DNA of 64,000 nucleotides from Oceanispirochaeta sp. GTDB taxonomy: Bacteria; Spirochaetota; Spirochaetia; DSM-2461. The notes beneath the pieces were generated by a model. It was not told the DNA's origin. It searched no databases and worked only from the letters and a program-made list of their open reading frames with translations. A program made the position numbers and the translations under genes. Shown here piece after piece: positions 8,662-12,409 of the stretch (within the stretch, counting starts at the first letter, position 1; each line of letters opens with the position of its first letter). The DNA is taken from assembly GCA_963663385.2 (NCBI GenBank), contig CAXXXD010000001.1, positions 352,001 through 416,000 on the forward strand, written 5' to 3'.

Positions 8662-9825
8662 TCAAAAGGAGCGGCTGAAATTTTCTTCCGCCGTTTTTTC
8701 AACTTTTTTTCTGAATACCGACTTTGCAATCAGCTCCTCCAGCTTTGCCTCGAAGGCCTCTTCATCCACAGGGATTTCCACCATTTTTCCCTCAAAGCTG
8801 GAGAGCATAATGGCATTGTCCATGGCGATGGAGCCGATGCCCTCTGCAGCAGGCGCTATAAGCTCGGCTCTTCCGGCGATGGCGTCGCAGAAATTCTCAA
8901 GGATGATCCGATGCTCTCCCCCTCCGGCGTCAAAGGGTATATCAACGGTCCAGCACTCGGGCTTTTCAAAACCCTTTTCAGCGTTTTTAAGATGATTGAG
9001 AAGCGATTCCCTGTTCCGGAGAAAGGTCAGTCTGTCTCCTTCCCAGATCAGCCGACCCTGCTCTCCCGCAATTTCCAGACGGTTCGTCCCGGGAGCCTCT
9101 CCGGTCGATGTAATGAAATGCCCCACCATACCGTTATCGTATTCAAAGTAGGCCGTTACTTCGTCTTCCACTTCGATGTCATGGTATTTCCCCAGCGAGG
9201 CGAAGCCTCTGACTCGGTCGGGACAGCCGGCGAACCACTGAAACATATCGAGCTGATGGGGACACTGGTTCATGAGAACCCCGCCCCCCTCACCGGCCCA
9301 GGTGGCCCTCCAGCCTCCCGAATTATAGTAGGACTGAGTGCGGTACCAGTCGGTAATAATCCAGGTCATCCGGATCAGTTTCCCCAGTTCCCCCGCATCG
9401 ATCAGTTCCTTGATTTTCCGGGCGGCCCCCCGGGTCCTCTGCTGGAACATGGCGGAGAAAACCAGGCCGGGGGTCTCTTTCCGGGCGGCCTCCCAGGCGG
9501 AAATCATCTTCCGGATATCCTTCACATGGACGCCGACCGGTTTCTCTGTCAGAACGTGGATCCCTCTGGCAAAGGCCTCTACAGCGATGGTCGTGTGGGC
9601 GTAGTGGGGGGTGGCGATGACGATGCCGTCAATCCCGCCGGCGCCGAACAGATCTTCGGTCGAGTTATATCCCCTGCAGCCGTATAAGGCGGCAGCGGCG
9701 TCGGTCTTTTCCGCAGCAATATCGCAGACAGCAGCCAGCTCGGCGGTATCCATAGAAGTGATATCCCGGCAATGGCAGGTTCCCATATTTCCCAGGCCGA
9801 TAACGGCCAGTCTGATTTTATCCAT
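8662..9825 (-). CDS. Gfo/Idh/MocA family oxidoreductase
   Basis: GLGNMG Rossmann motif, IATPHYAH, HVLTEKP, EGGGVLMNQCPHQLD. Confidence 0.93.
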   Translation of the reverse strand: MDKIRLAVIGLGNMGTCHCRDITSMDTAELAAVCDIAAEKTDAAAALYGCRGYNSTEDLFGAGGIDGIVIATPHYAHTTIAVEAFARGIHVLTEKPVGVHVKDIRKMISAWEAARKETPGLVFSAMFQQRTRGAARKIKELIDAGELGKLIRMTWIITDWYRTQSYYNSGGWRATWAGEGGGVLMNQCPHQLDMFQWFAGCPDRVRGFASLGKYHDIEVEDEVTAYFEYDNGMVGHFITSTGEAPGTNRLEIAGEQGRLIWEGDRLTFLRNRESLLNHLKNAEKGFEKPECWTVDIPFDAGGGEHRIILENFCDAIAGRAELIAPAAEGIGSIAMDNAIMLSSFEGKMVEIPVDEEAFEAKLEELIAKSVFRKKVEKTAEENFSRSF

Positions 9826-9884
9826 TTATCTCTCCTATAAAAAGTCAATCATAAGCCTATTAACAAGCTTACAATTGAACCGGA

Positions 9885-10997
9885 TTACCCAGTTTTTACG
9901 GCATTGAATGCAGCCGCCTGCATCTTCAAGTACTTATCATCCGGAACCATCTTCAACGGATCAAAGGGTTCACGGGTTTTCAATATGGAGTACACTACCG
10001 TACTCATCTTTCTTGCAGAGGCGATAATACTCGTGCCGCTGCCCTTGTTCTTCTTCATCGCTCTGTACTTCGTCATGATACGGTAATTGCCAGTCGTTTT
10101 CCGAGTTCTAACCATTCCCATAACACACTGAACAAATGCCGTTCTCAGTTCTACAGCCCCTCTCTTTGTTATATGCCCATGATGAATCGTCTCATTGGAG
10201 TTCTGCACCCATGGTACAAGACCGGCATAAGCCGAATACTTCTTGGCACTGGCGTACCGCTTGATATCATCCGTATAGGCCCTAATAGTCGATGCCGTTA
10301 TCAATCCGACTCCCGGGATCGTCTGCAATAACTGTACATCCTCATCTTCCTTTACAAGTTCCAGCAGGACTTTCTCTAACTGCTTGACCTGGTTCGAAAC
10401 CTGATCTATCGTAGAAAGCAGCGGTTCTATCGCTTTGGCAGCGCTTCCGAAACTCCTATGGTCCACGAGACCGATGAGGATGCGCTGCCTTTCTTTTTTA
10501 CTCTGCAGCGCAGCTCTTTTTGTTTCAATTCCATACCCTAGAAGCAGTCCGTGAACCTGATTCTTCAAAGATACGACTGATTTAACAAGGATAGTTCTGG
10601 ATTTAAGAACTCTACGGATATCCTCACTCTCCTGAGAACAAAGCTGTGATTCGGGAAGCATATCTTTTTCCAAGAACTCTGCTAGAGTTCTGGCATCATG
10701 CTTATCCGTCTTTTTCACTGATTCATTTACAACTTTGAATTTCAGTGTATTCACAACCACCACCTCAATCCCTGCTAGCAATAGCTTGTTACGGAAGAAC
10801 CGGGCATTTCCTGTTGATTCCACTGCAGCCCTAACATCAAGGCCCTCTTCTGTATAGGACACTGCTTTCTCAAGAAATGCTCTGTAACCGTCCTCAGAGG
10901 TCGGATACATTCCTGATTCACAAATGCTTCTATCATCACTCAGGAAACAGACTGTTAACTGGGATTTGTGCAGATCCACTCCGATACTCATCTTCAT
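9885..10997 (-). CDS. IS110-family DEDD recombinase/transposase
   Basis: GVDLHK, AVEST, KTDKHDA (RuvC-like DEDD), LQTIPGVG, AYAGLVPWVQNS (catalytic Ser position), ARK; start at 10997 chosen for the AGGAG RBS 7 nt upstream. Confidence 0.95.
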   Translation of the reverse strand: MKMSIGVDLHKSQLTVCFLSDDRSICESGMYPTSEDGYRAFLEKAVSYTEEGLDVRAAVESTGNARFFRNKLLLAGIEVVVVNTLKFKVVNESVKKTDKHDARTLAEFLEKDMLPESQLCSQESEDIRRVLKSRTILVKSVVSLKNQVHGLLLGYGIETKRAALQSKKERQRILIGLVDHRSFGSAAKAIEPLLSTIDQVSNQVKQLEKVLLELVKEDEDVQLLQTIPGVGLITASTIRAYTDDIKRYASAKKYSAYAGLVPWVQNSNETIHHGHITKRGAVELRTAFVQCVMGMVRTRKTTGNYRIMTKYRAMKKNKGSGTSIIASARKMSTVVYSILKTREPFDPLKMVPDDKYLKMQAAAFNAVKTG

Positions 10998-11019
10998 ACC
11001 TTCGCTCCTATTGCCTAAA

Positions 11020-11175
11020 ACAGCGCCTGTACGGTGAATTGATTCCATTCTCCTATCCGGTCTCGAAGACCATTGAATGTTTCGGTCACGGCTCTTCATT
11101 CTCCTGTACGGTCTCGGAGACCAGTAAAAATGGCGAACAGTAACCTGGCTGTTCTAAACGATGTTTAGAACATTG
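11020..11175 (-). ncRNA. Putative IS110 bridge RNA in the non-coding left end
   Basis: 10-bp hairpin at 11150-11172 plus two homologous modules GGTCT-ncg-AGACC-[guide]-AATG carrying TACAGGAGA (target match) and ATAGGAG (donor match); boundaries approximate. Confidence 0.6.
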
Positions 11176-11177
11176 TA

Positions 11178-12314
11178 TCAATCCACAAGCCTATGAAGAC
11201 TTTTTATCATTCCTCCTGTATATTCCAGTATTCGCGGTTCCACCCATGTTTCGAGAGGAATGGCAATCGGGCAGTTTTGAAAATGAGACTGGTAGAGAGC
11301 CAGTACGGTTTCCGTTGTCTCAGCCAGATCCGCCAGGCTCACGACAGGCTCATAGATCTCTCCCTTTTCCCTCATTTCCATAGCGGTTAAAATATCTCTG
11401 TAGTTCTCTCTGTGAAGCGCCCCGTAACAGGATTTTCCCGGGGCTTCAGACGTTCCGTTATCTGTAAAGGGTTCCAGCCTTTCAGTCAGTTCGGGATCTG
11501 TGCAGCTGAATCCACTGCTCCCGGTCAGAGTCAGAATCCCCCGGTCAAACCGCAGGGTCAGCCGCGGATCCCACGGAGTAGTAAGGTCATTCTCGAAATG
11601 CAGACTTATCTTCTGCGATTTCACAATGTCCCGGGGATAGCAAAGTTCTCCCGATCCTTTATCTTCCACTTCGATGGATGCGATTTTCTCTCTGTACAAG
11701 CGGTATTCCGCCGATTCCGGCCGGCCGATCAGATAGTGAAGGAGGTCCAGTGTATGAATCCCCTGATTGATGAGAGTCCCGCCCCCCTCCTCAAGCCATG
11801 TTCCCCTCCAGGAATCGCTTTCATAATAGGCGGGAGGTCTGGTACACAGGAATGTGATATCTCCCCCCAGAGTCTGTCCCAGAGTATTTTCCCGGATAAG
11901 ATTTCTCACTTCTCCGATCAGAGGGGAGAAGCGGTGCTGAAAGATCCCGAAAGAAAAGATTCCCCGTTCTTCCGCATTCAAGGCGGCAGTTTTCATACGG
12001 GCAAGCTGCTCCAGCGAGACAGCAAGGGGTTTTTCGCATATAACATGTTTGCCCGCTTCCAGGGCGTCAACCAGCGCCTGTTCATGAAGGTGGTGAGGAA
12101 GACAGAGCGCCACGGCCTGAATATCGGCAGAACACAGCATTTCCTTCCAGTCACTGTAAAGCCGACAGTTCCGACGGGAATCTAGTTTTGACAGTTTTTC
12201 CGGGTCTGTATCGCACAATGCCGACAACAAGGCCCGACCGTCATTCTCTATAGCCCAGGCATGGCTTTCCGCAATACTGCCGCATCCGATAATACCGATC
12301 TTCAGTTTCTTCAT
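11178..12314 (-). CDS. Gfo/Idh/MocA family oxidoreductase (last codons supplied by the IS end)
   Basis: GIIGCGSIA, CLPHHLH, HVICEKP, EGGGTLINQGIHTLD; start at ATG 12314. Confidence 0.9.
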   Translation of the reverse strand: MKKLKIGIIGCGSIAESHAWAIENDGRALLSALCDTDPEKLSKLDSRRNCRLYSDWKEMLCSADIQAVALCLPHHLHEQALVDALEAGKHVICEKPLAVSLEQLARMKTAALNAEERGIFSFGIFQHRFSPLIGEVRNLIRENTLGQTLGGDITFLCTRPPAYYESDSWRGTWLEEGGGTLINQGIHTLDLLHYLIGRPESAEYRLYREKIASIEVEDKGSGELCYPRDIVKSQKISLHFENDLTTPWDPRLTLRFDRGILTLTGSSGFSCTDPELTERLEPFTDNGTSEAPGKSCYGALHRENYRDILTAMEMREKGEIYEPVVSLADLAETTETVLALYQSHFQNCPIAIPLETWVEPRILEYTGGMIKSLHRLVD

Positions 12315-12409
12315 ATCCCTACCATAATTCCGGTTCCAGCATTTATGAATGACTGTATTCTGAAGAAACATGGACTTTTTCTGACTATTTACTATAATCT
12401 AGGAGTATT

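Follow-up and report, generated by a model that had tools for sequence, protein, structure and literature searches.

Guide RNAs of the bridge-RNA kind were first described in 2024. Bridge recombinases are under development as programmable genome-writing tools and, to our knowledge, nearly all mechanistic work on them has been carried out on IS621 and a few relatives. Mycobacterial IS110 elements of the IS900 type are said to insert between the ribosome-binding site and the start codon of a target gene, with their transposase gene antiparallel to that gene. These IS900-type elements contain a hed open reading frame, which, in the portion of PMC8141618 that we drew upon, has neither a ribosome-binding site nor a start codon of its own. 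The guide layout of IS621 was given by Durrant 2024 (PMC11208160; consulted in part). In the sections of Siddiquee 2024 (PMC11187229) used here, the seekRNAs of the IS1111-family elements ISEc11, ISKpn4 and ISPa11 carry the top-strand guide before the bottom-strand guide, ISEc21 showing the opposite order, and in IS1111 elements the non-coding region lies downstream of the transposase gene, with ISMtsp17 and 'a few' others as exceptions that have it upstream. A 2026 preprint, COMPASS, presents in its accessible part 86 bridge-RNA covariance models, many of them deviating from IS621, and the RNA family described below may already be among these 86.

At the locus studied here, the non-coding left end of an IS110-family element would encode a bridge RNA (seekRNA) that tells the DEDD recombinase of the element which two DNAs to join, by the mechanism known from these systems; we put the probability of this reading at roughly 0.88. 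The evidence that carries it is the covariation, across relatives, of two guide segments with the left flank and with the first bases of the element, which argues for a bridge RNA. An earlier note on this DNA had proposed the same interpretation, and it is sustained by z values of 5.4-9.9 for the left guide, by z values of 4.7-9.5 for the right donor guide and by compensatory changes in the predicted helices.

The element is 1381 bp long and occupies positions 9832-11212, on the minus strand, of the window, by which we mean the whole 64,000-nucleotide stretch of DNA analysed; all features below are on the minus strand. Its limits rest on the comparison of ten copies in this genome, which are all 100% identical and have common ends, and no other genes of the element's family were found in the same genome beyond these ten. 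The left and right boundaries shared by the ten copies are those that the earlier note had reconstructed, and the individual sequences which that note had placed in the left end were all found where it put them, namely the arms of a perfect 10-bp hairpin, TGTTCTAAAC and GTTTAGAACA (11172-11163 and 11159-11150), TACAGGAG(A) (11108-11100) and ATAGGAG (11056-11050). By convention, the left AGGAG is treated as flank and the right AGGAG as element sequence, so that in 10/10 copies the left boundary reads AGGAG followed by GAATGATAAAAAG, and the element closes with GACTTTTTATAGGAG. The non-coding left end measures 215 nt, versus 53 nt for the right end. In public DNA contigs, a repeat unitig covering 9832-11217 has a depth about 5-6 times that of the flanks; these contigs hold only the collapsed repeat, with no joint across the element, and so neither an empty site nor a circle junction was seen in them. 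A search with left-flank DNA found no uninterrupted orthologous locus among 40 relatives. In 3/4 public DNA runs, a contig departs from the element at window position 10364, inside the transposase gene, and may represent a truncated or interrupted copy.

The transposase (recombinase) gene (9885-10997, 370 codons plus stop) was assigned from Pfam and NCBIfam, its product matching the domains DEDD_Tnp_IS110 (E 8.7e-21) and Transposase_20 (E 4.6e-19) as well as NF033542, 'IS110 family RNA-guided transposase' (228 bits, the cut-off being 140). The protein is nearer to the transposase of IS4321 from plasmid R751, the sole IS1111-type reference compared (78.6 bits, 31% identity over 237 amino acids, residues 58-291), than to that of ISEc21 (30.4 bits) or that of IS621, which it resembles in the C-terminal domain only (E 9e-16). 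In the IS4321 alignment, the conserved S/T-G dipeptide is S-N in this transposase. Right after the stop codon, a terminator-like hairpin of 15 pairs with a T-run occupies 9878-9845, overlapping the candidate -35 box and the right inverted repeat described below; a comparable hairpin is present in relatives, and if it terminates transcription, read-through into the downstream host gene would be lost.

Both ends of the element carry a subterminal inverted repeat of 10 bp, 5 nt from either end, of which an 8-bp core is kept in relatives. The left repeat, ATAAAAAGTC (11198-11207), read from the sequence, contains the 8-nt core ATAAAAAG, near-invariant in alignments of relatives, and a candidate extended -10 box, TGATAAAAA (TAAAAA at 11206-11201); the right repeat, GACTTTTTAT (9846-9837), was likewise read from the sequence. 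The right end, TTGACTTTTTATAGGAG (9832-9848), defined from the sequence and from the right ends of relatives, begins with a candidate -35 box recognised by its motif, TTGACT (9848-9843), and finishes with ATAGGAG (9838-9832), which the sequence and the relatives identify as the left donor and which is also the new Shine-Dalgarno sequence of the gene downstream. Judging from these motifs, the right-end TTGACT and the left-end -10 box would form a promoter in an excised circle, with a spacing of 17 nt across the circle junction (counted by hand), from which the left end would be transcribed. In one relative (L039:2620-2680), the last ~29 nt of the right end are present as a tandem duplicate, giving two right-end motifs 29 nt apart.

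Relatives of the element were collected with its transposase. Species-representative genomes gave 76 loci, most of them from assemblies of Spirochaetia and Desulfobacterota (51-79% identity), with a further group at 32-39%; metagenomes gave 259 loci, of which the best 80 were taken. End motifs, located by regular expression, were found at the left in 141/166 loci and at the right in 130/166, the remainder being cut contigs or members of the distant group. Two modules could be parsed in 134 loci, while parsing failed in 2 others; 7 with irregular hairpin parses were dropped, and the 127 kept loci correspond to 122 unique insertion events and 77 distinct RNAs. Guide covariation was assessed by permutation tests with one row per distinct RNA, and the structure alignment comprised 74 distinct left ends, 13 of 87 being left out for insertions, irregular parses or near-duplication.

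In the first of the two modules, the segment ACAGGAG (11101-11107) follows the left flank of the element, which identifies it as the left target guide. Identity between guide and flank forms a clean diagonal, with z values of 9.7, 9.9, 5.4 and 6.5 at positions -7 to -4 (n=69 distinct RNAs) and off-diagonal cells mostly below z 3; positions -3 to -1 of the guide never vary. The guide equals the flank at 7/7 positions in 72/106 events and at 6/7 in 30/106, at least one mismatch being present at 34/106 insertion sites, and at the two variable positions the mean number of matches is 1.72, against 0.91 +/- 0.05 after shuffling (maximum of 1000 shuffles, 1.08). An independent check in two related genomes gave a 7/7 match of guide and flank in 6/7 further elements, and a same-genus relative has the guide TCAGGAG next to the flank TCAGGAG. 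Homologues with different targets thus carry different guides when distinct RNAs are compared, a check that the earlier note had named. As the guide carries the sense of the flank, it would pair with the bottom strand.

The length of this guide is 7 nt. The earlier note had rightly taken the module-1 segment for the target guide but had drawn it as the 9-nt TACAGGAG, and position -8, the T of that segment, was rejected as a guide base, having z values of -0.4 to 1.3 and never matching in six copies of one relative; this lack of covariation is what limits the guide to 7 nt. In the 64-kb window, TACAGGAG occurs 6 times against 1.4 +/- 1.26 expected, and two of the occurrences, in the left end and the left flank respectively, are separated by 112 nt. 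Among the ten copies in this genome, the left flank is TACAGGAG in 6/10 and ACAGGAG in 8/10. At the locus itself, the left target ACAGGAG (11213-11219), established from the sequence and from copy comparison, lies in the Shine-Dalgarno region of the downstream oxidoreductase gene, which the insertion has split. Only two guide positions vary freely, and other determinants of site choice are therefore possible. A further observation concerns a Spirochaetia assembly with 15 copies (L011-L024, L029) whose target guide is TTAGGAG; here the left flank nevertheless reads ATAGGAG, the donor-guide sequence, in 9/15 copies and TTAGGAG in only 4/15, and several of these flanks come from a single repeated stretch of host sequence similar to the element's own right end.

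The second module contains two segments that correspond to the two ends of the element itself. The first, CATTC (11075-11079), on the 5' side of what would be the donor-binding loop, is the right donor guide and reads the right donor GAATG, the first 5 nt of the element (11208-11212): across 77 distinct RNAs, this segment and the first five bases of the element covary along a Watson-Crick antidiagonal with z values of 9.5, 4.7 and 6.9. With wobble allowed, guide and right donor pair at 5/5 positions in 36/42 distinct combinations, among them CGTGC/GCACG, CATGC/GCATG, CATAC/GTATG, CGTTC/GAACG and CACTC/GAGTG. CATTC had been offered in the earlier note as one candidate right-hand guide, and this covariation bears it out; a correction concerns the CATT/AATG 'stems' of the modules, which overlap the guide. 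We also weighed whether the A-N-TG that comes after each left guide might read the element's first bases, and rejected the idea because, by eye, this segment remains AATG where those bases differ (for example GCACG). The second segment, ATAGGAG (11050-11056), is assigned as left donor guide by its concordance with the last 7 nt of the right end, in agreement with the earlier identification of this segment with the circle-junction sequence. It is present in 118/122 events and the right end is ATAGGAG in 111/111; as both are invariant, they agree but cannot covary. The same count marks the right AGGAG as part of the element rather than a target duplication, since among relatives the left flank sometimes ends in TGGAG, CGGAG or AAGAG and the right end is ATAGGAG in all 111 readable cases. 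AGGAG is shared by target and donor and present in both left guides, and CATTC is followed by bases, mostly AA, that lack complementarity to AGGAG. In three metagenome contigs (L147, L149, L151), the left donor guide of module 2 is interrupted between ATAGGA and G by ~25 additional nt forming a small hairpin; these relatives may be inactive copies, or the insert may be a tolerated expansion.

The proposed bridge RNA would run from about 11194, a 5' end placed by the -10 box, to about 11013, its course otherwise resting on fold and covariation. The range of 11020-11175 given in the earlier note thus located the RNA but fell short of its extent, as the covarying helices alone span 11186-11013. 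The 220-nt left end folds at -65.7 kcal/mol, compared with -51.5 +/- 4.3 in shuffles (z -3.3; 0/200 as good). A search of Rfam with 9700-11400 returned five matches at E up to 10, none of them in the left end and none at gathering score. In the structure alignment, a further check that the earlier note had suggested, the hairpins and two longer helices proved to carry compensatory changes: in the five helices kept in this way, 90.5% of cells are paired versus 83.7% after shuffling (0/500 reached), and 27-46% when the partner is slid as a control, with changes on both sides in 27/42 pairs among the 74 left ends; over the two helix comparisons made, such pairs numbered 27-29.

The outermost of these helices, P1, joins GTGGATTGAT (11177-11186) to ATCAATTCAC (11034-11043) in 10 pairs, of which 9 are changed on both sides (86.9% paired). 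It encloses the 5' hairpin (11150-11172; arm A, TGTTCTAAAC, and arm A', GTTTAGAACA; 10 pairs, 8 changed on both sides, 82.8% paired) and two loop modules. P3, whose 5' strand GGTTAC.GTTC (11135-11145) pairs with 11094-11084 (10 pairs, 4 changed on both sides, 95.3%), forms the target-binding loop's basal stem, and this loop has hairpin 1, TGGTCT-CCG-AGACCG (11109-11123; 6 pairs, 3 changed on both sides, 93.2%), at its apex; hairpin 2, TGGTCT-TCG-AGACCG (11058-11072; 6 pairs, 3 changed on both sides, 97.5%), is the apex of the donor-binding loop. This helix map makes module 1 an internal loop, bounded by P3 and by hairpin 1, and places the loop of module 2 beneath hairpin 2 and within P1. Additionally, arm A' has an alternative partner, A2, CTGTTTTAGGC (11013-11023), with which positions 11159-11149 form 11 pairs, 10 of them changed on both sides (84.6%), and which ends 3 nt before the Shine-Dalgarno sequence of the transposase (11009-11005). 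Pairing of A' with A2 excludes the 5' hairpin and crosses P1, and may represent a pseudoknot or a switch.

The two modules resemble each other closely. The motif GACCG-NNN-AGGAGAATG, common to both, is present at two places in the 64-kb window and was absent from all 100 shuffles, and it is plausible that a single module was duplicated internally. After P1, CACCGTACAGGCG (11024-11036) closely repeats GACCGTACAGGAG of module 1, and the pattern ACC-G-N-A-N-A/C-GG is kept in relatives at 11024-11036; it may be a degenerate third module.

The remaining segment, the guide for the right flank, is the weakest of our part assignments. It is probably the U-run CAUUUUU in the 5' strand of the target-binding loop, GCCATTTTTAC (11124-11134), and would face the A-rich spacer behind AGGAG and possibly the start codon as well; the CCATTT suggested in the earlier note is part of this stretch and therefore survives as a candidate, less well supported than CATTC. 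When the module-1 5' strand is compared with the right flank, the best register, numbered 0, sets the base adjoining hairpin 1 opposite +1 (z 3.2, 98 events), and in distinct sets it gives z 2.7 in 61 loops and z 2.7 in 32 loops with a 6-nt spacer. These values were reached by 2-8 of 2000 shuffles and reflect a small effect of ~0.3 extra pairs out of 6. Other registers between -4 and +5, except 0 and -1, gave z values of 2.0 or less and were discarded, as was the register of the donor loop (i+j = -2), which has no signal in the target loop. In register 0, the U-run of CAUUUUUAC would face the A-run at +3..+6, and the near-invariant CAU (59/61 loops) faces ATG at a 6-nt spacer, the commonest spacing (50/98 events). 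In a relative whose guide base opposite +6 is A instead of U, T stands at +6 in 3/3 sites with a 6-nt spacer.

This assignment also draws on the nature of the sites occupied, for which this genome gives stronger evidence than the comparison across families. The target of the family is NN-AGGAG, 5-8 nt and ATG: AGGAG ends 106/115 readable left flanks, ATG follows 4-10 nt after AGGAG in 86/98 events (50 at 6 nt) against 10/79 in the control, and every insertion is co-oriented with a downstream open frame, the right end re-supplying AGGAG at its original distance from the start codon. At the present locus, the right target, recognised from the sequence, the open reading frames and the domains, is AGATAA plus the ATG of the downstream Gfo/Idh/MocA gene (9823-9831; open reading frame 8662-9825). 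In this genome, 1444 ACAGGAG heptamers are unoccupied, and ATG stands 5-8 nt behind only 129 of them (8.9%) but behind all ten occupied sites. As selection against insertion within genes could explain such a bias, we compared the occupied sites with likely gene starts, defined by AGGAG, a spacer of 5-8 nt and an open frame of at least 100 codons, which left 786 unoccupied and 9 occupied sites. The occupied sites have A at a mean of 3.11 of the 4 positions +3..+6, versus 1.48 in the 786 starts (1/20000 draws reached this value; one genome), the frequency of A per position being 0.67-0.89 compared with 0.33-0.45; selection on insertion sites could have produced part of this enrichment. One unoccupied likely gene start in this genome consists of ACAGGAG, GTAAAAAG and then ATG, and is a candidate free target; the first seven bases of GTAAAAAG are exactly complementary to UUUUUAC, the last seven of the proposed right guide strand. 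On the other side of the element, a Gfo/Idh/MocA oxidoreductase open reading frame upstream of it (11178-12371) ends inside the left end (11178-11212), which supplies its last ~11 codons and stop, so that the insertion rewrote the C-terminus of that protein.

Taken as a mechanism, these parts would work as follows. Module 1 would act as the target-binding loop, its 3'-side ACAGGAG pairing with the left flank's bottom strand, as the covariation shows, and the U-run of its 5' strand would, with moderate support, read the right flank. Module 2 would act as the donor-binding loop, in which the 5'-side CATTC, again by covariation, reads the first bases of the element and the 3'-side AUAGGAG matches its last bases, concordant and invariant as these are. 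The crossover would take place somewhere within the shared AGGAG, and an exchange there would put the element within a Shine-Dalgarno sequence and in the same orientation as the gene that follows, with the right end replacing AGGAG at the original spacing. More tentatively, and with the odds in our view somewhat against it, the target loop may read the entire translation-initiation region, seven bases covering the Shine-Dalgarno sequence on one strand and CAUUUUU covering the A-rich spacer and, at 6-nt spacing, the ATG on the other; in that case the element would carry an imitation of such a region in its donor junction, ATAGGAG-GA-ATG, and the two conserved, mutually exclusive partners of A' would serve as a switch coupling the folding of the guide RNA to translation of the transposase or to RNA processing. 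If the whole region is indeed read, the element would belong to a lineage of guide RNAs specialised for gene starts that re-supplies the ribosome-binding site it splits.

The data can be read in other ways, two of which dispense with a guide RNA altogether. The left end might serve the transposase mRNA as a structured 5' leader and nothing more, acting on translation or stability, with its AGGAG segments as internal Shine-Dalgarno-like decoys and its likeness to the flanks as a by-product of insertion into Shine-Dalgarno sites. AGGAG does occur in all three guide-like segments, and a conserved alternative pairing that ends 3 nt before the transposase Shine-Dalgarno sequence suggests that some regulation takes place; the variable bases beside AGGAG, however, follow the flank in 69 distinct RNAs (z about 10), and CATTC follows the first bases of the element by the Watson-Crick rule, and a leader would have no reason to track either, which makes this account very improbable. 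Still harder to credit is that the modules act as DNA, in the form of repeated subterminal binding sites for the transposase. They are direct repeats near an end, as found in many transposons, but the compensatory changes in hairpins 1 and 2 (3/6 pairs each) and in the long-range helices P1 and P3 point to a folded single strand, and sites in duplex DNA cannot account for helix partners that lie over 140 nt apart.

Closer to the bridge-RNA reading, and unlikely rather than remote, is that the guide RNA is made but does not read the right side, the 5' strand of module 1 being structural, with CAU closing the loop against UG, and the A-rich, ATG-proximal right flanks reflecting only the survival of harmless insertions. 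The right-flank signal across the family is small, the spacer varies from 5 to 8 nt, and CA and UG could pair inside the RNA, all of which would fit a structural strand. Against it stand the occupied sites, which are far richer in A at +3..+6 than the 786 gene starts (1/20000 draws), and the relative with A for U at the matching guide position, in which T is present at +6 in 3/3 sites with a 6-nt spacer. We retain the bridge RNA with a right target guide as the working interpretation, at the strength given above for that guide.

A distant sister family extends the comparison beyond the relatives aligned here. On a Lentisphaeria chromosome (L072-L085, 33% protein identity), the flank ends in AAAGGAG before ATGGTATGATAAAT, the right end closes with TTTTATCATAGGAG and is followed by a spacer and then ATG, and an RNA upstream of the gene carries AAAGGAG and TATAGGAG, each on the 3' side of a hairpin. 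That this group, at ~33% protein identity, shares the AGGAG target, the upstream RNA and an AAAGGAG guide indicates that the habit of homing to AGGAG is old and widespread.

If the bridge-RNA reading is right, several points would matter beyond this element. Its two-loop design would tolerate swapped guide strands in each loop with the RNA still at the left end, which would be useful for learning what in the RNA scaffold can be exchanged and how the layouts of IS110 and IS1111 relate. It would also be a natural example of a very short programmable guide, with two free bases beside a fixed AGGAG, aimed at ribosome-binding sites. An insertion that repairs what it breaks bears on how genomes hold 10-15 copies with little damage, and the repair of the Shine-Dalgarno sequence bears equally on polar effects on the genes behind.

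Like the IS900-type elements as we know them, this element homes to translation-initiation regions in one orientation. Set beside IS621, as far as the consulted sections of PMC11208160 describe it, the element has in common an RNA in a long left end upstream of a DEDD recombinase gene, the succession of a 5' hairpin, a target loop and a donor loop, and a promoter split across the circle junction (here a candidate promoter), without target duplication. Compared with IS621, as portrayed in the same sections, the guides have changed sides in both loops: of the covarying guides, the right donor guide lies 5' of hairpin 2 and the left target guide 3' of hairpin 1, whereas in IS621 and ISEc21, to the extent that the sources used cover them, the bottom-strand (left) guide lies 5' of the top-strand (right) guide. 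The same partial account of IS621 gives a 2-nt core, subterminal repeats of 2-3 bp and a right donor guide followed by core-complementary bases; the present element has the target NN-AGGAG with 5 bases common to target and donor, subterminal repeats of 8-10 bp and a right donor guide that is not followed by such bases. Similarly, it resembles the IS1111 seekRNAs, within the part of PMC11187229 on which we rely, in placing the guide complementary to the top strand before the bottom-strand one, and it resembles the IS1111 group in its long subterminal inverted repeats (10 bp here, 7-17 bp being the group criterion and 11 bp being read in IS4321), but it differs from these elements, going by the same part of that source, in that its RNA is upstream and not downstream of the transposase gene. 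The layout of its guides is a mirrored, IS1111-like one while the RNA stays at the left end. As each single feature has a precedent, the value of this element lies in the comparison with IS621 and the IS1111 group and not in a new principle.
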